IMG/VR virus record: IMGVR_UViG_2541047821_000009 | DNA length: 35,232 bases | DNA from: a virus | Lineage: Duplodnaviria > Heunggongvirae > Uroviricota > Caudoviricetes | Strand: one strand, 5' to 3' | Shown here: positions 3,237-34,042 of the stretch, one piece after another | Layout of the letters: each line of letters opens with the position of its first letter | Position numbering within the stretch: position 1 is the stretch's first letter | Position numbers and translations under genes: made by a program | The notes under the pieces: model-generated | What the model was told of the DNA's origin: nothing | What the model saw: the letters and a program-made list of their open reading frames with translations, nothing else | The model's database searches: none

Positions 3237-3511
3237 GTATTCGTATTGAAATTGGCGAACGTTATGTCGTTACCAGTGACAGCTTTCAGTTTATTCTCCA
3301 CGAGAAAAAGAGAGCGGAAAGCGGTAAAAACGCCGGTCAGGAGTGGCTGGCGGTGGTTGGTTATTACCCGAAATTAAGCCAGCTCGTTTCCGGTCTGATG
3401 CATCACGATATTCTGACCGGAAGCGCAAAGTCTTTTGCTGATTTAAACACGCAGGTTGAGCAGCTCAGCAAGCGTTGTTCAGAGGCGTTCTCCAGAGGAG
3501 CGTCTGAATGA
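3233..3511 (+). CDS. Hypothetical early protein (orf83 position)
   Basis: 92-aa ORF, coupled to neighbours. Confidence 0.5.
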   Translation: MSIRIEIGERYVVTSDSFQFILHEKKRAESGKNAGQEWLAVVGYYPKLSQLVSGLMHHDILTGSAKSFADLNTQVEQLSKRCSEAFSRGASE

Positions 3512-4515
3512 TTACTGATGCTCGTTGCCATACTGAAAATACCATCAATGTTATTTTTGTTTCAGGTGGAAAGGACAGCCTTGCTCAGTGGCTTGTCGCT
3601 ATTGAAGAAAATGTACCCATATTGCCGGTTTTTGCTGATACGGGACATGAACATCCACAGACAATGAAATATCTGGATTATCTGGAAAAACGGCTTGGCC
3701 CAATTAAAAGAGTCAGAGCTGATTTTTCCTGCCGGATTGAATCAAAGCGCAAGTTTATCCAGACCAAATGGCCTGATTTGTTGGTTAACGATTGTGGAAT
3801 GTCGGAAGAAGAAGCGCACCAGCGCATCAGTTGTGCGCTGGAAATTCTCAAACCAACGGGTATCCCGTTTCTTGATTTGTGTCTGTGGAAGGGGCGTTTC
3901 CCATCAACCAAAGCCAGATTTTGCACATTTGAACTGAAACATGAACCCGTGCGTTCTCAGGTAATCCTGCCTTTACTCAATGAATTTGAGGAAGTGATTA
4001 GCTGGCAGGGAGTGCGTGCTCAGGAATCGCCATCACGCGCAGCTTTACCTGTCTGGGAAGAGGATGCAGACAACACACCCGGATTGCATGTATATCGCCC
4101 GATTTTGCACTGGAAGCATGAAGATGTATTTGCAATAGCCAGAAGACATGACATTAAGCCAAATCCGTTATATCAGCAGGGGTGTGGCCGTGTTGGTTGT
4201 ATGCCATGTATTCATGTCCGTAAATCTGAACTGGCAGAAATTTTTCGCCGGTGGCCGGAGGAAATAAAGCGGGTTGCTGAATGGGAACGACTGGTTGCGT
4301 CGTGCTCCCGTCGGGGAAATTCCACTTTTTTCCCATCCACACATGATCCGCTACGCGCAGAACGTCGTATTGAGGTTGTAACAGTCGAGGCATACGGAAT
4401 TGAAACCTACCATGACTGGACAATGACAACGCGTGGGGGTACTCAGTTTGATTTACTGGCTTCGGCGAATGATAAAGCCGTTTGCAGTAGTGTCTATGCC
4501 GGTGTATGTGAATGA
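3508..4515 (+). CDS. PAPS-reductase / DndC-like PP-loop ATP pyrophosphatase family protein
   Basis: 335 aa; N-terminal PP-loop 'VIFVSGGKDS' (SGGxDS); C-terminal Cys cluster 'GCGRVGCMPC'; coupled to A (ATGA overlap). Confidence 0.7.
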   Translation: MITDARCHTENTINVIFVSGGKDSLAQWLVAIEENVPILPVFADTGHEHPQTMKYLDYLEKRLGPIKRVRADFSCRIESKRKFIQTKWPDLLVNDCGMSEEEAHQRISCALEILKPTGIPFLDLCLWKGRFPSTKARFCTFELKHEPVRSQVILPLLNEFEEVISWQGVRAQESPSRAALPVWEEDADNTPGLHVYRPILHWKHEDVFAIARRHDIKPNPLYQQGCGRVGCMPCIHVRKSELAEIFRRWPEEIKRVAEWERLVASCSRRGNSTFFPSTHDPLRAERRIEVVTVEAYGIETYHDWTMTTRGGTQFDLLASANDKAVCSSVYAGVCE

Positions 4516-6803
4516 GTCATTCTTTCCAGGAGCAATACACCTGCGTACCTCCGTCAGCATTTGCCGCAGGCACCGGTAAGACGTTTACCGGTGCTTATGC
4601 ATGGAACGCGCCGCGCGAGGCTGTCGGGCGCGAAAGACCTCTTACACGTGACGAGATGCGTCAGGTGCAAGGTGTTTTATCCACGATTAACCGCCTGCCT
4701 TATTTTTTGCGCTCGCTGTTTACTTCACGCTACGACTACATCCGGCGCACTAAAAGCCCGGTGCACGGGTTTTATTTCCTCACATGCACTTTTCAGCGTC
4801 GTTTATGGCCGCGCATTGAGCGCGTGAATCAGCGCCATGAAATGAACACCGACGCGTCGTTGCTGTTTCTGACAGAGCGTGACCATTATGCGCGTCTGCC
4901 GGGGATGAATGACAAGGAGCTGAAAAAGTTTGCCGCCCGTATTTCATCGCAGCTTTTCATGATGTATGAGGAACTCTGCGATGCATGGGTTGATGCCCAT
5001 GGCGAAAAAGAATCGCTGTTTACGGATGAGGCGCAGGCGCATCTGTATGGTCATGTTGCTGGCGCTGCACGTGCTTTCAATATTTCCCCGCTCTACTGGA
5101 AAAAATACCGTAAAGGACAGATGACCACGAGGCAGGCATATTCTGCCATTGCCCGTCTGTTTAATGATGAGTGGTGGACTCATCAGCTTAAAGGACAGCG
5201 TATGCGCTGGCATGAAGCGTTACTGATAGCTGTCGGGGAGGTTAATAAAGACCGCTCACCTTATGCCAGTAAACACGCCATTCGTGATGTGCGTGCACGC
5301 CGCCAGGCAAATCTGGAATTTCTTAAATCGTGTGACCTTGAAAACAGGGAAACCGGCGAGCGCATCGACCTTATCAGTAAGGTGATGGGCAGTATTTCTA
5401 ATCCAGAAATTCGCCGGATGGAGCTGATGAACACCATCGCCGGTATTGAGCGTTACGCCGCCGCAGAGGGTGATGTGGGGATGTTTATCACGTTGACCGC
5501 ACCGTCAAAGTATCACCCGACACGTCAGGTCGGAAAAGGCGAAAGTAAAACCGTTCAGCTTAATCACGGCTGGAACGATGAGGCATTTAATCCAAAGGAT
5601 GCGCAGCGTTATCTCTGCCGTATCTGGAGCCTGATGCGCACGGCATTCAAGGATAATGATTTACAGGCCTACGGTTTGCGTGTCGTCGAGCCACACCATG
5701 ACGGAACGCCACACTGGCATATGATGCTTTTTTGTAATCCACGCCAGCGTAACCAGATTATCGAAATCATGCGTCGCTATGCGCTCAAAGAGGATGGCGA
5801 CGAAAGAGGAGCCGCGCGAAACCGTTTTCAGGCAAAACATCTTAACCGGGGCGGTGCTGCGGGGTATATCGCGAAATACATCTCAAAAAATATCGACGGC
5901 TATGCACTGGATGGGCAGCTCGATAACGATACCGGCAGACCGCTGAAAGATACTGCCGCGGCTGTTACCGCATGGGCGTCAACGTGGCGCATTCCGCAAT
6001 TTAAAACGGTTGGCCTGCCGACAATGGGGGCTTACCGTGAACTACGCAAATTGCCTCGCGGCGTCAGCATTGCTGATGAGTTTGACGAGCGCGTCGAGGC
6101 TGCACGCGCCGCCGCAGACAGTGGTGATTTTGCGTTGTATATCAGCGCGCAGGGTGGGGCAAATGTCCCGCGCGATTGTCAGACTGTCAGGGTCGCCCGT
6201 AGCCCGTCGGATGACGTTAACGAGTACGAGGAAGAAGTCGAGAGAGTGGTCGGCATTTACGCGCCGCATCTCGGCGCGCGTCATATTCATATCACCAGAA
6301 CGACGGACTGGCGCATTGTACCGAAAGTTCCGGTCGTTGAGCCTTTGACTTTAAAAAGCGGCATCGCCGCGCCTCGGAGTCCTGTCAATAACTGTGGAAA
6401 GCTCACTGGTGGTGATACTTCGTTACCGGCTCCCACACCTTCTGAGCACGCCGCAGCAGTGCTTAATCTGGTTGATGACGGTGTTATTGAATGGAATGAA
6501 CCGGAGGTCGTGAGGGCGCTCAGGGGCGCATTAAAACACGACCTGCGAACGCCAAACCGTCAGCAAAGAAACGGAAGCCCGTTAAAACCACATGAAATTG
6601 CACCATCGGCCAGACTGACCCGGTCGGAAAGAATGCAAATTACCCGTATCCGCGTTGACCTTGCTCAGAACGGTATCAGACCGCAGCGATGGGAGCTTGA
6701 GGCGCTGGCGCGTGGCGCGACCGTAAATTATGACGGGAAAAAATTCACGTATCCGGTCGCTGATGAGTGGCCGGGATTCTCAACAGTAATGGAGTGGAAA
6801 TGA
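4512..6803 (+). CDS. A: Rolling-circle replication initiator endonuclease (gpA)
   Basis: 763 aa (P2 A is about 761 aa); HUH-type metal motif 'HHDGTPHWHMMLF' and catalytic Tyr region 'YIAKYISKNIDGY'. Confidence 0.85.
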   Translation: MSHSFQEQYTCVPPSAFAAGTGKTFTGAYAWNAPREAVGRERPLTRDEMRQVQGVLSTINRLPYFLRSLFTSRYDYIRRTKSPVHGFYFLTCTFQRRLWPRIERVNQRHEMNTDASLLFLTERDHYARLPGMNDKELKKFAARISSQLFMMYEELCDAWVDAHGEKESLFTDEAQAHLYGHVAGAARAFNISPLYWKKYRKGQMTTRQAYSAIARLFNDEWWTHQLKGQRMRWHEALLIAVGEVNKDRSPYASKHAIRDVRARRQANLEFLKSCDLENRETGERIDLISKVMGSISNPEIRRMELMNTIAGIERYAAAEGDVGMFITLTAPSKYHPTRQVGKGESKTVQLNHGWNDEAFNPKDAQRYLCRIWSLMRTAFKDNDLQAYGLRVVEPHHDGTPHWHMMLFCNPRQRNQIIEIMRRYALKEDGDERGAARNRFQAKHLNRGGAAGYIAKYISKNIDGYALDGQLDNDTGRPLKDTAAAVTAWASTWRIPQFKTVGLPTMGAYRELRKLPRGVSIADEFDERVEAARAAADSGDFALYISAQGGANVPRDCQTVRVARSPSDDVNEYEEEVERVVGIYAPHLGARHIHITRTTDWRIVPKVPVVEPLTLKSGIAAPRSPVNNCGKLTGGDTSLPAPTPSEHAAAVLNLVDDGVIEWNEPEVVRALRGALKHDLRTPNRQQRNGSPLKPHEIAPSARLTRSERMQITRIRVDLAQNGIRPQRWELEALARGATVNYDGKKFTYPVADEWPGFSTVMEWK

Positions 6804-7255
6804 TGGCAAAAATTCACGAGGTAAAGCTGCACGCTAAATATTTTGACCTTGTGCTGGAAGGAAAGAAACGCGCAGAGTTTCGGAAAAATGACCGTAATTA
6901 TGAGCGCGGGGACACGTTGATTTTGCATGAATGGGTACAGGGTGTGTATACGGGGCGAAAGGTTGAAGCCCGGATAACAGATGTTACTGACCTGTCAGAC
7001 TGGCTGGAAGATTATGTCTTGCTAAGTATTGAGCTGCTTAATACAGGCGCATATGAGACTGTGAACTGGAAAGAACTTAGTGAGCGTGGTCTGGTATTCA
7101 GAATTAATCATGAAATTATGCATCAGCTCGGCCTTGCTGTTATGTATGAACCAGAGACGGGGATGTCTGGCGGGGCAATGGTTGCCACGGATGGAGCATG
7201 GAACTATTCAGATGAACAGATGGAGCGTGCACAGCAAAACGGGTGGCTTGGATAA
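6800..7255 (+). CDS. ASCH (PUA-like) domain protein
   Basis: 'EGKKRAEFR' matches the ASCH G-K-x-x-E-x-R signature; ATG overlaps the A stop; first gene of the accessory locus. Confidence 0.6.
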   Translation: MMAKIHEVKLHAKYFDLVLEGKKRAEFRKNDRNYERGDTLILHEWVQGVYTGRKVEARITDVTDLSDWLEDYVLLSIELLNTGAYETVNWKELSERGLVFRINHEIMHQLGLAVMYEPETGMSGGAMVATDGAWNYSDEQMERAQQNGWLG

Positions 7256-7467: not shown

Positions 7468-7593
7468 AGAACGCCGCCAGTCGTGAAACTTGTTTTCAGG
7501 GCTGGCGGGGTTGAACAACGAGCGAAGCGAGGCGTTAGTTCAATCGATGATCATAAGCTTATGAGTTAAGCCTCGAGATTTTGTAGAAAGGGT

Positions 7594-7601
7594 TGTATAC
7601 T
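7594..7601 (+). promoter_or_regulatory. Candidate extended -10 element (TGTATACT) upstream of the methyltransferase
   Basis: TG-N-TATACT read directly; GGAG ribosome-binding site at 7617-7620 and ATG at 7626. Confidence 0.3.
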
Positions 7602-7625
7602 GGACATCGTATGGATCTGGAGTGA

Positions 7626-8651
7626 ATGATGATTGTAAAGGTGATAGACCTTTTTTGTGGTGCTGGCGGATTAACTCATGGTTTGCAACTCGCAGGTCTT
7701 GATGTCGTTGCTGGTATTGACCTTGAGGGGGAATGTCGATTTCCCTATGAAAAAAACAATAAATCAAAGTTTATTGAGAAAGATATCGCTAAAGTAACCA
7801 AAGAGGAATTACTGAAGCTATATGGTGATGCGTCTATAAAAGTATTGGCTGGATGTGCACCTTGCCAACCTTTTTCAAAATATACTCAAGGAAAAGATAA
7901 AGCGGAAGATAAAAAATGGCCTCTTCTTTATGAGTTCGAGCGTTTAATTCGCGAGGTATCTCCAGAAATTGTAACAATGGAGAACGTGCCTGATGTAACT
8001 AAACATAAAGTTTATAATGACTTTTATTGTTCGTTGTTAGAACTGGGATATTATGTTTGGGCATCAAAGGTTGATTGTGTCGAATATGGAATTCCACAGA
8101 ACCGTTCTCGTCATGTATTGTTAGCCTCAAAGTTGGGGGAGATTGAGTTAGTAAAACGTAATGATGTTATTTTGAAAACTGTTAGGGATGCAATAGGTGG
8201 CCTTCCACCATTAGAAGATGGTCAAACAGATCCAAATGATATATTGCATAGAGCCAGTAAATTAAACTCGATTAATAAAAAAAGAATTATACACTCTATT
8301 CCAGGTGGTACATGGAAGGACTGGCCGGAAGAACTTATTGCTGCTTGTCATATGAAGTCTAGCGGTAAAGGGTATGCTAGCGTATATGGGAGGATGTCTT
8401 GGGATAAGCCAAGCCCGACAATTACAACTCTTTGTTATGGTTTTGGGAATGGTCGTTTTGGCCACCCAGAACAGAACAGAGCTATTTCTCTTAGAGAAGC
8501 GGCTTTGTTGCAAACATTTCCTATGGATTATGTTTTTGTTGAAGAACAAGAAAAGTTTGTTATAAGAAGTATTGGAAAAATGATAGGTAATGCTGTGCCA
8601 GTTGAGTTAGGAAAAGTCATTGGGCAATCAATAAAAAATCATTTGAAATAA
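7626..8651 (+). CDS. DNA (cytosine-5)-methyltransferase
   Basis: Motif I 'LFCGAGG', motif IV 'GCAPCQPFS', motif VI 'TMENVPD', motif VIII 'QNRSRHVLLA', C-terminal 'GNAVPVELG'; AT-rich codon usage unlike the phage backbone. Confidence 0.85.
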   Translation: MMIVKVIDLFCGAGGLTHGLQLAGLDVVAGIDLEGECRFPYEKNNKSKFIEKDIAKVTKEELLKLYGDASIKVLAGCAPCQPFSKYTQGKDKAEDKKWPLLYEFERLIREVSPEIVTMENVPDVTKHKVYNDFYCSLLELGYYVWASKVDCVEYGIPQNRSRHVLLASKLGEIELVKRNDVILKTVRDAIGGLPPLEDGQTDPNDILHRASKLNSINKKRIIHSIPGGTWKDWPEELIAACHMKSSGKGYASVYGRMSWDKPSPTITTLCYGFGNGRFGHPEQNRAISLREAALLQTFPMDYVFVEEQEKFVIRSIGKMIGNAVPVELGKVIGQSIKNHLK

Positions 8652-8655
8652 TAAA

Positions 8656-8680
8656 ATGGCCTGCTTTGCAGGCCTTGTGA
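8656..8680. terminator. Bidirectional intrinsic terminator between convergent genes
   Basis: Hairpin GGCCTGC-ttt-GCAGGCC (8658-8674) flanked by an A-run upstream and a T-rich tract downstream. Confidence 0.55.
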
Positions 8681-9361
8681 TTATTTCTCTAAGTATTCAT
8701 TATTATTTATATAATGTTCTATATTATTCGCGATTGCATCAAGATAGGCTATTACTTCTAATGAAATATTCTCTAAATCCTGATATGAAACATTTTTCCC
8801 AATCTCAGCAAATGATACATTTCCATGAGATAAATCATTGCGATGTTGTTTAACAGTGGCTAACTTTTCACCATGTTTAGTGTGAGTGTAATCAGAATGG
8901 GTTGAAAATCCATATATTTTCGATTTTTCTTTTATTTCCTCTCTATCAATATTGCCTGAAAATATTTTCTTTTTGTTGAATGTACCATAAGAAATACCAC
9001 AGGATATGCCTTTAGTAAGTCCGTTGATTAAATTATCGATGTTAACAGATTCATTTTTTAATCTTTTTAAAATTTCTGATTTTAGGTTTTTTTTAAGTTT
9101 GTCAAACTCTATGTTTCTATCATAAATAGTCTCATGTATAAGGCAGATAGCCTCTCTCATTGTTGATTCAATAAGGTTGTATAATAGTATATATACTGCA
9201 CCCTTTAGAGTTTTTCGTGATTGAGATGTAATGGTGAACTTATGTTCTTTATTATCGGATGATATTAATTCCGCACCAGCATGCTCAATAAATTTTAAAA
9301 GATCTAAATAGGCCAAGATTTCTCCTGACCTTTCGTCAAAATCCTCACGAAAACGATCCAT
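8681..9361 (-). CDS. HEPN-like protein (putative RNase effector), partner of the DUF262 protein
   Basis: 226 aa; C-terminal 'QHRNDLSHG' fits the HEPN R-x(4-6)-H motif; its start is 1 nt from the stop of the upstream DUF262 gene. Confidence 0.5.
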   Translation of the reverse strand: MDRFREDFDERSGEILAYLDLLKFIEHAGAELISSDNKEHKFTITSQSRKTLKGAVYILLYNLIESTMREAICLIHETIYDRNIEFDKLKKNLKSEILKRLKNESVNIDNLINGLTKGISCGISYGTFNKKKIFSGNIDREEIKEKSKIYGFSTHSDYTHTKHGEKLATVKQHRNDLSHGNVSFAEIGKNVSYQDLENISLEVIAYLDAIANNIEHYINNNEYLEK

Positions 9362-9362
9362 G

Positions 9363-10505
9363 TTAATCCTCTAATAGTTTGTCTCGCACATATTCAATTC
9401 GTTCAATTACCTTCACGCGACTATTTGCTCCGTCGGAGGTGGTTAATTGTTTGAATTCTTCTGAGCTTAGCCAATCTAAGTTTTTGGGGACAAGGTTAGG
9501 CTCTAGACGTAATGCGAGTGCAGCACCAACAGCGAGAGATTCAAATCTAACTCGAGGTGTAGATTTTGCAGTGATAGTTTTCTTAAAGCCTGCTGGGAAA
9601 TGGTTTTCAACGAAAGACAGAACATTCGAAAACTCTTCTTTCATTGAGTTTTGTTCAGCTTCATCTATATTACTCTTTTCCTTCATGTAATCATTCAGAA
9701 AATCACGCACGGAATGATCAAATTTCTTATATTTATCTAAGTAGGCAAAGAATCTCAATGTAAATTCTAACCGTTCATCTCGTTTTTCTTTAGCCTCAGA
9801 TAAAGGTGCTAACTCCTTAAATTTAGATATTGTCGAGCATGGCTTAATAACCTGCGTATATAAATTTGTTGAGCCAAGTTCTGAACCTTTACGAACTTCC
9901 ATATCTTTCAATATGTCACTACCAGAGTTAATTCGCTCAAAAAGATCCCTGCGGGTTTCTTCATTGCATTTAGAACTCAACTCTATAACACGCACAGGAA
10001 TTCTCATGAAACGGCGTTGGCGTGATAATGGTAAATCTTGGAATCTGAAACCATTAAGAGAACTTAAAGATTTCAGATCTTGTAAAACTAATTCATTGTG
10101 GATAAACGCATGTATGGTTCTAACACGCTGTGAGCCATCAACAATTTCAATCCGTCCATCTAAATCGGGATCTTCTGAAAAGACATCAGCTGTAAATATA
10201 TATGGTATAGGGAAGCCCAAAATTAAAGACTCTATTAATCTTGATTGTCTCTTTTCATTCCAAACAAAGTCCCTTTGATAATCAGGAACAAAGAGTTCGT
10301 TGGTATCATCCTCTAACCCGTTATGATACTTATTAACTAATAACTCAACAGTAAATTCTTTGGTCTCAAAGTCAACATCCTTTTGCTCTGCGCGAATTTG
10401 CTCTTCAGCCTCTTGTTTTATAACTTCTAGCTGAGCTAGGAGTTCTGCCCTTTTTTTGGCATTATCTTCATGTTCTAGTTGAGATTTTAACCCAATAATA
10501 TCCAT
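9363..10505 (-). CDS. DUF262 (ParB/Srx-like, GmrS-type N-terminal domain) protein
   Basis: 380 aa; 'VPDYQRDFVW' and 'IVDGSQRVRTI' match the DUF262 signatures; no HNH/DUF1524 nuclease domain seen in the C-terminal half. Confidence 0.7.
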   Translation of the reverse strand: MDIIGLKSQLEHEDNAKKRAELLAQLEVIKQEAEEQIRAEQKDVDFETKEFTVELLVNKYHNGLEDDTNELFVPDYQRDFVWNEKRQSRLIESLILGFPIPYIFTADVFSEDPDLDGRIEIVDGSQRVRTIHAFIHNELVLQDLKSLSSLNGFRFQDLPLSRQRRFMRIPVRVIELSSKCNEETRRDLFERINSGSDILKDMEVRKGSELGSTNLYTQVIKPCSTISKFKELAPLSEAKEKRDERLEFTLRFFAYLDKYKKFDHSVRDFLNDYMKEKSNIDEAEQNSMKEEFSNVLSFVENHFPAGFKKTITAKSTPRVRFESLAVGAALALRLEPNLVPKNLDWLSSEEFKQLTTSDGANSRVKVIERIEYVRDKLLED

Positions 10506-10690
10506 ATCCAGATCCCTTAATGATTGTTATAAATGAAAACAGATAGCATACCGCATAGATCAGGAAAAATGCCATCGCATGCATGAATTTGCATGAGAGA
10601 AAGATTACCATTTGGGATTAGCTTTGCCAGTGCTGATGGGTTTTGGATTTTAATCATGTACTGCATCAAAACCGCCTCATGAAGCGGGCG

Positions 10691-10709
10691 GGCGAGGCGG
10701 GGAAAGCAC
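10691..10709. other. cos: cos site (19-nt cohesive-end sequence GGCGAGGCGGGGAAAGCAC)
   Basis: Exact 19-mer read at 10691-10709; matches the P2 cohesive-end sequence as recalled from memory; position immediately upstream of leftward Q is the P2 position. Confidence 0.55.
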
Positions 10710-10878
10710 TGCGCGCTGGCGGTGGTGCTGATTTTATTTTTTCAGCGTCTGAGCGCGTCGTGATGGCGTTTAGATTGTGCGCCGGGGCGTTGGTGTGTCT
10801 GCGGGGTGTTTTGTGCGGTGGTGAGCGTGTGAGGGCGTGATGACGGGGTGTAAAAAAGCCGCCCACAGGCGGCGATGT

Positions 10879-11913
10879 TCAGTCGTTGTCAGTGTCCAGT
10901 GAGTAGTTTTTAAAGCGGATGACTTCCTGACCGAGCCAGCCGTTTATTTCCCGAATCCTGTCCTGTAGCGGGATAAGCTCATTGCGGACAAAGACCTTTG
11001 CCACTTTCTCAATATCACCCAGCGACCCGACGTTCTCCGGCTTGCCGCCCATCAACTGAAAGGGGATGCGGTGCGCGTCCAGCAGGTCTGCGGCACTGGC
11101 TTTTTTGATATTAAAAAAATCGTCCTTCGTTGCCACTTCACTGAGCGGGATAATTTTAATGCCGTCAGCTTTCCCCTGCGGGGCATAGAGAAACAGATTT
11201 TTAAAGTTGTTGCGGCCTTTCGACTTCACCATGTTTTCGCGAAGCATTTCGATATCGTTGCGATCCTGCACGGCATCGGTGACGTACATGATGTATCCGG
11301 CATGTGCGCCATTTTCGTAATATTTGCGGCGGAACAGCGTGGCCGACTCATTCAGCCAGGCAGAATTAAGGGCGCTGAGATATTCCGGCAGGCCGTACAG
11401 CTCCTGATTAATATCCGGCTCCAGCAGGTGAAACACGGAGCCGGGCGCGAAAGGTGTCGGCTCGTTAAAGGACGGCACCCACCAGTAAACATCCTCTTCC
11501 ACACCACGGCGGGTATATTTTGCCGGTGAGGTTTCCAGCCTGATAACTTTACCGGTGGTGCTGTAACGCTTTTCCAGAAACGCATTACCGAACACCAGAA
11601 AATCCAGCACAAAGCGGCTGAAATCCTGCTGGGAAAGCCACGGGTGCGGAATAAACGTTGAAGCCAGAATATTACGTTTGACGTAAATCGGTGAGCTGTG
11701 ATGTACGGCAGCACGCAGGCTTTTTGCCAGACCGGTAAAGCTGACCGGTGGCTCATACCATCTGCCGTTACTGATGCACTCGACGTAATCCAGAATGTCA
11801 CGGCGGTCGAGTACCGGCACCGGCTCACCAAAGGTGAATGCCTCCATTTTCGGGGCCCTGGCGGTCATTGTTTTCACCGCTGGCTGCGGTGTTTTCCCTT
11901 TTTTCTTGCTCAT
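10879..11913 (-). CDS. Q: Portal protein (gpQ)
   Basis: 344 aa, same as P2 Q; next to cos and the terminase gene. Confidence 0.9.
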   Translation of the reverse strand: MSKKKGKTPQPAVKTMTARAPKMEAFTFGEPVPVLDRRDILDYVECISNGRWYEPPVSFTGLAKSLRAAVHHSSPIYVKRNILASTFIPHPWLSQQDFSRFVLDFLVFGNAFLEKRYSTTGKVIRLETSPAKYTRRGVEEDVYWWVPSFNEPTPFAPGSVFHLLEPDINQELYGLPEYLSALNSAWLNESATLFRRKYYENGAHAGYIMYVTDAVQDRNDIEMLRENMVKSKGRNNFKNLFLYAPQGKADGIKIIPLSEVATKDDFFNIKKASAADLLDAHRIPFQLMGGKPENVGSLGDIEKVAKVFVRNELIPLQDRIREINGWLGQEVIRFKNYSLDTDND

Positions 11914-13685
11914 CAGTAAAACTCCAGAATGGTGGATGTCAGCGGGGTGCTGATACCGGCGGTGAGTGGCTCATTTAACAGGGCGTGCATGGTCGCCCAG
12001 GCGAGGTCGGCGTGGCTGGCTTCCTCGCTGCGGCTGGCCTCATAGGTGGCGCTGCGTCCGCTGCTGGTCATGGTCTTGCGGATAGCCATAAACGAGCTGG
12101 TGATGTCGGTGGCGCTGACGTCATATTCCAGACAGCCACGGCGGATAACGTCTTTTGCCTTGAGCACCATTGCGGTTTTCATTTCCGGCGTGTAGCGGAT
12201 ATCGCGCGCGGCAGGATAGAACGAGCGCACGAGCTGGAACACGCCGACACCGAGGCCGGTGGCATCAATACCGATGTATTCGACGTTGTATTTTTCGGTG
12301 AGTTTGCGGATGGATTCAGCCTGGGTGGCAAAGTCCATGCCTTTCCACTGGTGACGCTCAAGTATTCTGAATTTGCCACCGGCCACCACCGGCGGTGCCA
12401 GTACCACGCATCCGGCGCTGTCGCCACGGTGTGACGGGTCGTAACCAATCCATACCGGGCGGGAGCCGAACGGATTGGCGGCAAACGGCGCATAGTCTTC
12501 CCATTCTTCCAGCGTGTCGACCATGCAGCGTTGCAGCTCCTCGAACGGGAACACCGACGCCTTGTCGTCAACAAATTCACACATGAACAGGTTTTTAAAA
12601 TCGTCGGCGCTGTTTTCACGTTTGAGCTGCTCAATGTCGAACAGCGTGCAGCCACCTTTCAGGGCGTCCTCAATGGTGACAATCTGCCGCCACTGGCCGT
12701 CCGCACAGAGAAGACCTCCGGCAAGGGCGTTATGACTGACGTCGATTTCCACGCGTTCGGCGGCGCTGGCGCGTCCCCGGTTGAACAGTTCACCCGACCA
12801 GAACGGGTAGGCGTCGTGCGCCAGCGTGGACGGGGTGGAGAAATAGGTCGAGCGCAGGTGACTCTGTGAGGCCATACCTGATGCCACCTTACGCAGTACC
12901 TGAAAATTCGGGATCCAGAAAATCTCGTCGACGTACAGGTCGCCGTTATGGCTCTGTGCGGTGTTGGAGTTGGTGCCGAGAAAAATCAGTTTTGCGCCGT
13001 TATTGCCCAGGACAATCGGGTCACCGGTCAGGTCAACGTCAACCAGCCGGGCAAAGGCGATGATGTATTCACGGAACACATACGCCTGCGTTTTACTGGC
13101 CGACAGAAAAATCTGGTTATGGCCGGTTTTCAGGGCGCGCAGCAGCGCCTCGCGGGAAAAATAAAACGTTGCGCCAATCTGGCGGGATTTCAGGATATCG
13201 CGGATGCGGTGCTCAAGCCCGGCGCGATACCAGTGCAACTGATAGTCGAAAGACTGCTCAAAGAAAATCTGCTCCAGCTTTTCGATGGCCTCGTCACTGA
13301 AAAAATTCTTTTTCGGTTTGCGGCGTTCGCCTTTGTTGCGGTTAGCGACGTTCGGATTAAGGTCTGCCTCGTTGCCGGTCTGGCTGTAGCGGTTGACCCG
13401 TGCCAGTCGTTCAATCTGGCGTCCGAGCAGGTCAATTTCCTTGAAGTCACCGCCGGTTTTCTGCGGTTTGATGATGAGCTGGGTCAGCCGCGCTTCCAGA
13501 CTCATTTCGACACGGCTGATGGGGGCAACGCTGTCCCAGCCGTCGCGCTGTTTCCAGCTCTGCACCGTCGGGCGTTTCATCTGCAACATGGCGGCAATCT
13601 GCGGCACGGAAAACCCCTGCCAGTACAGCAGCGCCGCCTGACGACGCGGGTCGTGTAAAAGAGTGGTGTCTGTGGTGATGGTCAT
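11913..13685 (-). CDS. P: Terminase large subunit (gpP)
   Basis: Start at internal Met (MTITTDTT...) gives 590 aa as in P2 P; N-terminal HTH-like region. Confidence 0.85.
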   Translation of the reverse strand: MTITTDTTLLHDPRRQAALLYWQGFSVPQIAAMLQMKRPTVQSWKQRDGWDSVAPISRVEMSLEARLTQLIIKPQKTGGDFKEIDLLGRQIERLARVNRYSQTGNEADLNPNVANRNKGERRKPKKNFFSDEAIEKLEQIFFEQSFDYQLHWYRAGLEHRIRDILKSRQIGATFYFSREALLRALKTGHNQIFLSASKTQAYVFREYIIAFARLVDVDLTGDPIVLGNNGAKLIFLGTNSNTAQSHNGDLYVDEIFWIPNFQVLRKVASGMASQSHLRSTYFSTPSTLAHDAYPFWSGELFNRGRASAAERVEIDVSHNALAGGLLCADGQWRQIVTIEDALKGGCTLFDIEQLKRENSADDFKNLFMCEFVDDKASVFPFEELQRCMVDTLEEWEDYAPFAANPFGSRPVWIGYDPSHRGDSAGCVVLAPPVVAGGKFRILERHQWKGMDFATQAESIRKLTEKYNVEYIGIDATGLGVGVFQLVRSFYPAARDIRYTPEMKTAMVLKAKDVIRRGCLEYDVSATDITSSFMAIRKTMTSSGRSATYEASRSEEASHADLAWATMHALLNEPLTAGISTPLTSTILEFY

Positions 13686-13858
13686 GAATACCTCGCCGTG
13701 ATGAATACACGGCAAGGCTACTGAGTCGCGCCCCGCGATTCGCTAAGGTGCTGTTGTGTCAGTGATAAGCCATCCGGGACTGATGGCGGAGGATGCGCAT
13801 CGTCGGGAAACTGATGCCGACATGTGACTCCTCTAATCACTATTCAGGACTCCTGACA
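13686..13858. promoter_or_regulatory. Divergent late-promoter region between P (leftward) and O (rightward)
   Basis: Only non-coding gap between the divergent P and O operons; by analogy with P2 it should hold Ogr-dependent late promoters; I could not confidently identify the TGT-N12-ACA activator site by eye. Confidence 0.3.
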
Positions 13859-25308: not shown

Positions 25309-25836
25309 ATGCAGCATTTAAAAAATATTACGGCGGGTAATCCAAAAACGGTTGAACAATATCAATTGACAAAAGACTTTGATGTTGTCTGGTTTTTTTC
25401 AGAAGATGGTAAGAACTGGTACGAAGAACAAAAGTATTTTGCTGATGACACGCTAAAAATAGCGTACGACAAAGATAATATCATCCGCTATGTGGAAAAG
25501 GATGTGACAGCTATCAGACCGGATGGATTAAGTGTTGTTGAAGTGGCGGATATTACTGCTAACCGACGGGCGGACATTTCAGGGAACTGGATGTTTAAGG
25601 ACGGCAAAGTGATTAAACGCATTTATACGGCAGAGGAATTGCTGCAGCAGGCAGAAAACCGGAAAGCCAGACTTCTTGCAGATGCTGAATCCGTGATTTT
25701 GCCGCTGGAGCGCGCGGTCAGACTGAACATGGCAACAGATGAGGAGCGTAGCCGACTGGATGCATGGGAGCGTTACAGCGTTCTGGTCAGTCGTGTGGAT
25801 CCTGCAAATCCTGAATGGCCGGAAATGCCGCAATAA
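25309..25836 (+). CDS. G: Tail fibre assembly chaperone (gpG)
   Basis: 175 aa as in P2 G; immediately after H. Confidence 0.75.
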
Positions 25837-26057: not shown

Positions 26058-26651
26058 ATGTTTACTAAGCGACGATTAAAAAATATTAACTGGGAGGCAA
26101 GTTCAGTGATTCTTGCTATGGTTCTCTTTGTTGGAAATATATTTTATACAAATCATCGTGATGATATAACTATGGAGGCTGAGAGGGACAGTATCAGAAC
26201 AATGTTTGCATATGAAATCGCTAATAACCATCGCGCTCTCACTTTTCTTGATAAAACGAGATATATTGGCTTTGACGAAAATTCGGAGCATTTTGTTGGC
26301 GAGCCTTTTGCCATTAATGTCAAATCATTAGGGGGGCCTCGCTTACAGATTGCATTAAACCAGACTGATAAAGTGTTTAAATCCTACTTCAGCGAATTAA
26401 GTAAGCTTGATAAAGAGGATGTTACTCTTCTTATGGACTATTACCATGAGCAAAGCATCCTGCTGGAGCGTGTAAAATCTACGTTACAGAAGATGAAAAG
26501 TGGTAATGATATTAAAGTTGATATTGATGGTTACTTATTAGAAGAACACTTCATGAATGAGCTTAATCTTTCTAATATTTTGCTTAAACGCTATAGCCAT
26601 TTGTTGTCACAACACGCCAAAGAACATAAAACAAAAGATTTACATAATTGA
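26058..26651 (+). CDS. Membrane-anchored hypothetical protein at the Z/fun-equivalent locus
   Basis: 197 aa; AAGGTG ribosome-binding site; N-terminal transmembrane helix 'SSVILAMVLFVGNIFY'; strongly AT-rich; no recognisable domain. Confidence 0.6.
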   Translation: MFTKRRLKNINWEASSVILAMVLFVGNIFYTNHRDDITMEAERDSIRTMFAYEIANNHRALTFLDKTRYIGFDENSEHFVGEPFAINVKSLGGPRLQIALNQTDKVFKSYFSELSKLDKEDVTLLMDYYHEQSILLERVKSTLQKMKSGNDIKVDIDGYLLEEHFMNELNLSNILLKRYSHLLSQHAKEHKTKDLHN

Positions 26652-33284: not shown

Positions 33285-33365
33285 TATGTTTTATTTATCT
33301 GTTTGTTTTATAAGGATAAATTAACTAAAATGGCACCATCAACAAAACCGGAAGAGGTGCTCGCG

Positions 33366-33584
33366 ATGTTTCATTGTCCTTTATGCCAGCATGCCGCACA
33401 TGCGCGTACAAGCCGCTATATCACTGACACGACAAAAGAGCGTTATCACCAGTGCCAGAACGTGAATTGCAGCGCCACGTTCATCACCTATGAGTCGGTA
33501 CAGCGATACATCGTGAAGCCGGGAGAAGTCCACGCCGTAAGGCCGCACCCGTTGCCGTCAGGGCAGCAAATTATGTGGATGTAA
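33366..33584 (+). CDS. ogr: Late-gene transcriptional activator Ogr (zinc finger)
   Basis: Internal Met 'MFHCPLCQHAAHARTSRYI...HQCQNVNCSATF' gives 72 aa with a C2C2 zinc-binding motif, as in P2 Ogr. Confidence 0.8.
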   Translation: MFHCPLCQHAAHARTSRYITDTTKERYHQCQNVNCSATFITYESVQRYIVKPGEVHAVRPHPLPSGQQIMWM

Positions 33585-33634: not shown

Positions 33635-34042
33635 TTACTTACCTGTGTAGGTATGAGTTTTGGATAACACCACTGTTTGTGCAGGTTTTTCCATTAACGG
33701 AGCGATTTCATTGCATGTGGTCAATGGGTCTTCAAAGGTATATCCAATAGACTTATATTGGTTAACTATATTGATTTCACTTACATTTTTTAAAAATGAA
33801 GAAGGAGCGTCATGTGTCCAGAGTGGGGTGCATACACCGGACATAATTAAATGATTATAGGCTTCTGATGTGATTTTTTTAGCAGGGAGAACAACGGTAA
33901 GAGAGCTATCTTTTGTTGTGATTTCCAGTGGTTGCCATGGTTTCAGTTGTTTTTGAAGAGTTTTAATGTCATTCGTGTTTGCGTATGCATTGAGTGAAAT
34001 TATTAAGGTGGTTATTGCCATTATTGATTTAAGAGTTGCCAT
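33635..34042 (-). CDS. Secreted hypothetical protein (signal peptide)
   Basis: 135 aa; N-terminal signal peptide 'MATLKSIMAITTLIISLNAYA' with an AYA-N cleavage-like site; strongly AT-rich. Confidence 0.5.
   Translation of the reverse strand: MATLKSIMAITTLIISLNAYANTNDIKTLQKQLKPWQPLEITTKDSSLTVVLPAKKITSEAYNHLIMSGVCTPLWTHDAPSSFLKNVSEINIVNQYKSIGYTFEDPLTTCNEIAPLMEKPAQTVVLSKTHTYTGK

Follow-up and report, generated by a model that had tools for sequence, protein, structure and literature searches.

Is the DNA methyltransferase gene that a P2-like (Peduovirus-type) prophage carries at positions 7626-8651 of the IMG/VR record IMGVR_UViG_2541047821_000009 (Duplodnaviria; Heunggongvirae; Uroviricota; Caudoviricetes) a separate asset of the phage, or does it belong functionally with the DUF262 and HEPN genes that converge on it? 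The record, 35,232 nucleotides in all, is called the window below. The initial annotation, made from the sequence alone, had proposed that the enzyme may be the self-protecting partner of the DUF262/HEPN genes and had named an orphan anti-restriction methylase as the alternative. Comparison of the locus with its relatives strongly supports the linkage, and the methylase is near-obligately partnered with DUF262/HEPN in one mobile cassette. The cassette comprises three genes in about 3.1 kb, occurs naturally in P2-like prophages of Escherichia coli (15 of 5,426 complete genomes) and ranges from enterobacterial prophages to cyanobacterial chromosomes. The methylase alone is ordinary; the worth of the locus lies in the partnership. 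The triad is probably a restriction-modification-like anti-phage module of a kind predicted in 2013.

The methylase and its DUF262 and HEPN neighbours

The methylase gene is an uninterrupted open reading frame of 341 codons on the plus strand. Residues 5-337 of the product were aligned with positions 2-323 of the 324 positions of the Pfam model DNA_methylase (PF00145; E=1e-57, 196.5 bits against a cut-off of 22), and the NCBIfam model TIGR00675 (dcm) was matched with 127.6 bits, above its cut-off of 100.65. In the translation, motif I, the S-adenosylmethionine-binding FxGxGG, reads F10-C-G-A-G-G15, and motif IV reads P79-C80-Q81 with Cys80 as the catalytic residue. Motifs VI (E119-N-V121), VIII (Q158-N-R-S-R162), IX (R285...Q296-T-F-P299) and X (G321-N-A-V-P-V326) follow in the canonical order, and VIII and IX are separated by a variable region. 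The columns of motif I and of PCQ are among the best conserved across 75 methylase homologues. In a sequence search of the PDB the nearest entries were M.HaeIII (E=2e-20), the C-terminal half of DNMT1, M.HhaI and two uncharacterised enzymes. The two family models and the motif reading bear out the initial description of a full cytosine-5 (C5) methyltransferase with canonical motifs, and by these features the product is a genuine but ordinary C5 methylase with all catalytic motifs present, proposed here as a modification component.

The upstream region of the methylase gene (7560-7625, plus strand) forms the left edge of the cassette. It holds a weak promoter-like site, TCGAGA-17-TATACT, at 7573-7601 and a GGAG at 7618-7621. 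A scan of promoters returned 10 sites compared with 11 expected from shuffled sequences, so that the methylase promoter is merely suggested. Translation may start at the second ATG, 7629, because the homologues have 340 amino acids and the GGAG is better spaced for this codon; the protein would then also be 340 amino acids long.

Both neighbours are encoded on the minus strand. The proposed DNA sensor or switch is a DUF262 protein of 380 amino acids (9363-10505), a ParB-like nucleoside triphosphatase (NTPase) related to the N-terminal domain of GmrSD (PF03235, E=9e-27, 94.9 bits against a cut-off of 33.2). Its best PADLOC match is NsnA (E=3e-55, residues 25-374 against positions 23-376 of 385), and the match to PD-T4-2_A lies well below this (E=7e-35). 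The motifs DYQR (74-77), DGSQR (122-126) and FERINSG (188-194, FERIN.G) are invariant and correspond to the QR, DGQQR and FxxxN NTPase motifs published for the DUF262 family. The C-terminal half is helical and NsnA-like, and no DUF1524 nuclease domain was found in the protein by the Pfam search. With an AlphaFold2 (AF2) model (mean confidence, pLDDT, 79), the top matches in the PDB were BrxU, ParB CTPases and SspE, all of them weak. The upstream region of the operon (10506-10650, minus strand) is the right edge of the cassette, and no convincing sigma-70 site was seen in it.

The end of the DUF262 gene is separated by 1 bp from the start of the gene for the proposed nuclease effector, a protein of 226 amino acids (8681-9361) belonging to the HEPN_MAE_28990 family (PF18737, E=1e-29). 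It has an invariant R174-x4-H179 (Rx4H) and an AF2 model with a pLDDT of 91. No PADLOC model was matched by this protein at E<=0.01, and hence not PD-T4-2_B, with which it has just PF18735 (E=1e-8) in common. Searches with the DUF262 and HEPN sequences against solved structures gave no significant match.

Linkage and transfer of the three genes

The neighbourhoods of DUF262 homologues were collected by a scan with the DUF262 alignment, taking one genome per species. This yielded 80 loci with 46-84% identity, 73 of which had enough flanking sequence to be assessed. Most come from cyanobacteria, including Microcystis; Gammaproteobacteria, Bacteroidota, Planctomycetota and Acidobacteriota are also represented. 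A C5 methylase adjoins the DUF262 homologue in 70 of the 73 assessable loci (96%). It is closely related to the window enzyme (phmmer E<1e-90) in 66 loci and more distant in 4, and 3 loci have none. The 66 close relatives occur in three arrangements, with 58 convergent and downstream, 7 upstream and co-directional, and 1 downstream and co-directional. Since adjacency persists through gene rearrangement, it bears the classical signature of functional coupling.

The same picture was obtained starting from the methylase. Homologues from Pantoea (86% identity), E. coli (73%), Vibrio (64%), Pseudomonas (64%) and Shewanella (63%) all lie beside HEPN_MAE_28990 and GmrSD_N genes, and at identities of at least 62% every inspected context has both genes adjoining. 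These contexts comprise the P2 hotspot described below, the interval between integrase and CI in a Vibrio prophage, and chromosomal islands of Pseudomonas and Shewanella near other restriction genes. Starting from DUF262, the triad turned up again in Klebsiella, where it occupies the nin-like region of a lambdoid prophage, and in 186/Fels-2-type prophages of Salmonella. Both the DUF262 and the HEPN protein have matches in nine Moraxella phages (Mcat24-32), and Mcat32, the one inspected, has the full triad. Two viral contigs in IMG/VR carry a methylase 100% identical to that of the window, adjoined by the same two genes. Further observations were made on single loci. In a Salmonella prophage (L018, 7933-8973) an insertion sequence with an rve-family transposase lies between HEPN and methylase genes, with all three genes intact. 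In the Vibrio prophage (L009, Logan SRR11066759) the triad is flanked by the integrase on one side and a CI-type repressor on the other; work on the Vibrio WASA-1 prophage describes defence systems that swap at one locus in related prophages (PMC12137116). Two Hormoscilla loci contain extra DUF262-like fragments about 2 kb upstream of an intact triad (L076, 3396-3896; L086, 3245-3746), perhaps left over from a duplication or from an older copy.

Divergence of the three proteins was compared across 72 loci. Pairwise identities are correlated with r=0.91 for methylase and DUF262, 0.82 for methylase and HEPN, and 0.85 for DUF262 and HEPN. Discordant divergence was seen between one group of loci (L005, L009, L010 and L011) and another (L022-L029). 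In one discordant sub-lineage the methylase is 63-73% identical to that of the window, DUF262 42-48% and HEPN 26-35%; in the other, the methylase is 53-57% and DUF262 57-65% identical. This discordance indicates that the methylase has been exchanged between DUF262/HEPN lineages. Adjacency, co-divergence and the three gene orders together uphold the functional partnership put forward in the initial annotation; the protective role that it proposed for the methylase is an inference, taken up below.

The layout of the genes had been offered as a further argument for a restriction-modification pair. The methylase and HEPN genes do converge, with a gap of 29 bp, across a 7-bp GC-rich hairpin (GGCCTGC-TTT-GCAGGCC, 8658-8674) that has a terminator-like T-rich tail on each strand. 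The hairpin has a folding energy of -20.2 kcal/mol (z=-5.67), and none of 200 shuffled sequences folds as well; a bidirectional intrinsic terminator is plausible. The argument from layout is weak, as the layout is not conserved and the methylase is co-directional in 12 loci. The hairpin is no family-wide feature either, and the 3' ends of the genes abut or overlap in many relatives. At the same hotspot of another P2-type phage, a methylase unrelated to that of the window is likewise arranged convergently. In this phage (L132, 5402-8440; NC_070904, labelled Peduovirus P2) the C5 methylase is annotated as BspRI-like and is 26% identical to the window methylase; it is followed by two convergent genes (341 and 357 amino acids, no Pfam match), maybe another uncharacterised methylase-linked pair. 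The architecture of the P2 hotspot was also considered as the reason for the convergence, but it cannot account for it fully, since the three genes come together in non-P2 contexts and in different orders as well.

The initial annotation had also read a small target-recognition region, and from it a short recognition site, into the methylase. By alignment the variable region between motifs VIII and IX comprises 122 amino acids compared with about 107 in M.HaeIII. It is thus of ordinary, slightly greater length, and the argument is not supported. The recognition site could not be predicted, as the PDB, NCBIfam (dcm superfamily only) and the literature yielded no characterised close relative. 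Across the 75 homologues, conservation of the variable region equals or exceeds that of the catalytic core, which suggests that a single recognition specificity has been retained family-wide and would fit a constant mark with dedicated readers. Such a fixed methylation specificity would be unusual among restriction-modification methylases.

Methylase relatives with 49-60% identity that lack DUF262/HEPN neighbours adjoin a GHKL protein of about 700 amino acids (HATPase_c_3, MORC-like) in all three scanned neighbourhoods. The pairs were found on IMG/VR viral contigs (L118, 5001-8530; L119, 5001-8572; L122, 4986-8097), with the two genes facing each other in L118 and L119 and pointing the same way in L122. 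In these sister methylases the variable region is as conserved as in those of the triad. With a GHKL-type partner in these relatives, the methylase clade gives the impression of a module devoted to modification that can take different partners, and the sequences suggest a single mark with alternative readers, DUF262/HEPN or the GHKL protein.

The borders of the cassette were located by DNA homology. Homology to copies of the cassette in other phage backbones starts at 7526-7570 and ends at 10505-10716, which places the edges at about 7560 and 10650; the P2 backbone itself stops near 7540 and resumes at 10654-10661, in the cos region with the portal terminator. With these edges the cassette takes in both upstream regions, and it transfers as one DNA block that includes them. 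Its GC content is 32-40% compared with 50-60% in the prophage backbone. Among complete E. coli genomes, more than 2,000 match the flanks only, up to about 7540 and from 10654, and just 8 contain the full insert, at 89% identity. Three cassette variants were distinguished in the 5,426 genomes, present in 8, 4 and 3 of them, and all are annotated with three genes.

That the methylase is phage-borne was confirmed by the remaining content of the window, which includes P2 capsid genes. The integrase (1-1011), the gpA replication protein (4512-6803) and an ASCH/DUF3850 orf91-like gene (6767-7255) precede the cassette, and the portal (10879-11913), the large terminase (11913-13715) and Ogr (33303-33584) follow it. 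The methylase, HEPN and DUF262 genes thus lie between gene A/orf91 and the cos/portal region. The position between gene A and portal is the tin/old site of P2, a hotspot for defence systems (Vassallo et al., PMC9519451). Three other genes of the window were noted. The first, at 3508-4515 (plus strand) in the early operon just upstream of gene A, encodes a PAPS-reductase-domain protein (PF01507, E=5e-35) of 335 amino acids with PADLOC matches to SspD (3e-21), BrxP and DndC. The same slot holds a Dam-type methylase (PF02086) in 186-type relatives (L002, 3489-4322), and by this comparison it looks like a second variable site for DNA-modification genes. A connection of this gene with the DUF262 protein in the manner of Ssp was rejected because other inspected prophages bear the triad without it; it is probably unrelated to the cassette. 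The second is an open reading frame of 197 amino acids (26058-26651, plus strand; GC 0.37-0.41) after the tail-fibre assembly gene (25309-25836), a site known as the second P2 defence hotspot, the Z/fun locus (Vassallo et al., PMC9519451). The third, with 135 amino acids (33635-34042, minus strand; GC 0.42-0.45), lies by Ogr, close to the right-hand end of the prophage. Neither of the last two matched anything in Pfam or PADLOC.

What the module may do

All three proteins of the window are identified and intact and carry their catalytic motifs, and their genes are tightly linked in evolution as one transferable unit. What they do together is described here by a model that we consider rather likely, in which the triad is a restriction-modification-like module: the methylase would mark resident DNA, the DUF262 NTPase would discriminate, and the HEPN nuclease would execute. 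We infer four elements of it: the meaning of the mark as "self", the role of DUF262 as its reader, the role of HEPN as effector, and the HEPN substrate. In a lysogen, the methylase would mark a single short and invariant motif with 5-methylcytosine, in the DNA of host and prophage alike. The DUF262 protein would bind DNA and, through binding or hydrolysis of a nucleoside triphosphate, separate marked from unmarked molecules. On meeting unmarked incoming phage DNA it would switch on the HEPN protein, whose Rx4H site would cut nucleic acid, most likely RNA, and the superinfecting phage would be stopped directly or through abortive infection. The Menshen study speculated that DNA without modification may be the target of those ParB-DUF262 proteins that are linked to methylases (PMC12065111). 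If the model holds, the cassette is a compact and widespread restriction-modification-like system built from parts foreign to classical restriction enzymes, a ParB-like NTPase and a HEPN protein. It would also bear on whether the DUF262 sensor domain, a reader of modified DNA in GmrSD and BrxU, can serve to recognise unmodified DNA.

Several points weigh against so simple a scheme of self-protection. HEPN domains are usually RNases, and the coupling of a DNA mark to an RNA-cutting effector lacks an explanation. GmrSD and BrxU, the DUF262 enzymes studied in most depth, have modified and not unmodified DNA as their target. PD-T4-2, which is composed of DUF262 and HEPN, protects E. coli K-12 without a cloned methylase (PMC9519451). 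Three of the 73 loci have intact DUF262 and HEPN genes with no adjacent C5 methylase, and in a fourth the methylase is fragmented. In Oscillatoriales, a convergent and conserved open reading frame of 220 amino acids with no Pfam match stands in the place of the methylase (L091, 7864-8526; L097, 7861-8523; minus strand), and in L095 an RsmB/F-like methyltransferase (PF01189, E=4e-23; 7795-8760, plus strand) directly follows HEPN. In Peduovirus P24B2 (L100, NC_049387) the methylase has a +1 frameshift and DUF262 and HEPN are intact. The frameshift results from a G8 tract at the P-G-G codons of the methylase, where the 99.3% identical prophage of E. coli 2023CK-01509 (L131) has G7, and could reflect either an error in sequencing or a slipped-strand switch of the methylase. 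Decay affects 4 loci with a broken DUF262 or HEPN gene beside an intact methylase and 4 with a missing or broken methylase; in these small numbers the asymmetry expected of classical restriction-modification is not seen. Finally, the searchable literature yielded no experiments on the triad. The sole paper there containing "MAE_28990" is a survey from 2013; searches for the triad returned work on PD-T4-2, Menshen, GmrSD-like and Ssp systems, not the triad itself, and Rousset 2022 was found to contain neither DUF262 nor methylases. WonAB and GrwAB of Vibrio cholerae are unrelated systems.

A more specific form of the restriction-modification-like model is put forward only tentatively. Here the triad would be a distinct class of restriction-modification system in which self and non-self are told apart epigenetically on DNA, by a single fixed, family-wide 5-methylcytosine motif that is read by a ParB-type NTPase switch, with a HEPN RNase as executioner and a GHKL/MORC-like ATPase as an alternative reader. 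DNA methylation status would then be converted into an RNA-targeting, possibly abortive, response.

The mark might instead license the system, in the manner of Ssp. DUF262 would sense 5-methylcytosine in the host, its NTPase would be stimulated, and the system would stand poised, with HEPN acting on unmarked invaders. In SspE the DUF262 NTPase is triggered by recognition of phosphorothioate in the host (PMC10952713), and SspE arrests growth without its modification module (PMC12707154); its activity against phages depends on the phosphorothioate marks that SspABCD makes. SspE is also among the weak structural matches of the DUF262 model, and the tight methylase linkage and the fixed variable region would fit such a mechanism equally well as one in which the mark is a shield. 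We nevertheless regard it as unlikely. The part held in common is the DUF262 domain alone, as SspE's DUF1524 nuclease is absent from the window protein; binding of 5-methylcytosine by DUF262 has no direct support; and loci without a methylase would be non-functional, yet their genes stay intact.

Similarly little weight is given to the proposal that two independent functions travel together. DUF262 and HEPN would then form a PD-T4-2-like, Type IV-like sensor of modified DNA or of another cue, and the methylase would be a separate asset of the phage that shields its genome from Type II enzymes of the host or acts epigenetically, which covers the orphan anti-restriction enzyme of the initial annotation. 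The cytosines of T4 are hypermodified, and PD-T4-2 blocks T4 in the absence of a methylase. GmrSD and BrxU are modification-dependent, some natural loci as well as phage P24B2 have no working methylase, and defence hotspots pack unrelated genes together (PMC9519451). Against an unrelated passenger stand an adjacency of 96% that spans phyla, three gene orders and non-phage locations, the co-divergence of methylase and DUF262, and the transfer of the block as one unit. The chromosomal non-phage copies have no obvious need of an anti-restriction methylase, and the sister methylases are not solitary but have another putative restriction protein as partner.

Addictive behaviour is known from classical Type II restriction-modification systems. 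That the cassette was likewise selected for stabilising itself or the prophage, with loss of the methylase leading to unmarked DNA and killing by DUF262/HEPN and with phage defence as a secondary effect, is quite improbable: the cassette is highly mobile, always as a unit, and its convergent genes with independent upstream regions would permit differing expression kinetics, but 3-4 lineages retain intact DUF262 and HEPN genes with no methylase next to them, the decay shows no asymmetry, and the hotspot in which the cassette lies, being enriched in anti-phage systems that have been validated, points to defence (PMC9519451).

Comparison with known systems

The closest experimentally validated system is PD-T4-2 from E. 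coli ECOR65 (Vassallo et al. 2022, Nat Microbiol), also an anti-phage pair of DUF262 and HEPN proteins. Its two genes occupy 1,540 bp and are active without a methylase when cloned as a fragment of 1,824 bp; deletion from the native strain increases plaquing of T4 (PMC9519451). The window cassette differs from it in the HEPN protein, which does not match PD-T4-2_B, in the DUF262 protein, which matches PD-T4-2_A but is closer to NsnA, and in the methylase linked to the pair almost throughout the family.

The closest mechanistic analogue is SspABCD-SspE, where a DNA-modification module works together with a restriction component whose DUF262 NTPase reads the mark. Unlike the window cassette, Ssp uses phosphorothioation by four proteins and a DUF1524 His-Me nickase fused to DUF262; in the window, 5-methylcytosine is predicted to be deposited by one enzyme, and a separate HEPN protein is the proposed effector. 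GmrSD and BrxU share with the window protein an N-terminal DUF262 NTPase (PF03235) with motifs of the QR, DGxQR and FxxxN type, and BrxU was the top structural match. In contrast to what is proposed here, these enzymes attack modified DNA and need no cognate methylase, and the DUF1524 domain is absent from the window protein. With a linked methylase, attack on 5-methylcytosine at the same sites would be self-defeating for the DUF262 sensor.

Menshen (NsnABC) resembles the cassette in its NsnA component, as the nearly full-length match implies the same architecture of a ParB-DUF262 domain and a C-terminal DNA-binding domain (PMC12065111). The window cassette lacks the ABC ATPase NsnB as well as the effector NsnC, HEPN follows DUF262 directly, and the C5 methylase is integral and not occasional. 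With Type II restriction-modification systems such as HaeIII and HhaI it has in common a C5 methylase of monospecific size with the landmarks of the ten motifs, linkage to putative restriction genes, and mobility as a unit. It departs from them in that no PD-(D/E)XK, HNH, GIY-YIG or PLD fold was found in the neighbours by Pfam and PADLOC, an NTPase sensor and a HEPN protein taking their place, and in that the variable region of its methylase family does not diversify. Membership in GmrSD, Menshen, PD-T4-2 or Type II restriction-modification fails, since for each of them a defining feature is lacking here.

The class to which the cassette can be assigned was described by Anantharaman, Makarova, Burroughs, Koonin and Aravind in 2013 (Biol Direct 8:15, Table 1), who listed MAE_28990 HEPN-ParB(DUF262)-DNA methylase operons in a computational survey. 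The window has the same components, a HEPN_MAE_28990 protein (PF18737), a DUF262 gene immediately upstream and an adjacent DNA methylase, and by its gene content belongs to this class, so that the association itself was already known. The 2013 entry is one line of a table and gives no mechanism, methylase class, phage context or quantification. What is added here is that the methylase is a single C5 clade with a fixed variable region, that the cassette is mobile with phages, and that the linkage is quantified.

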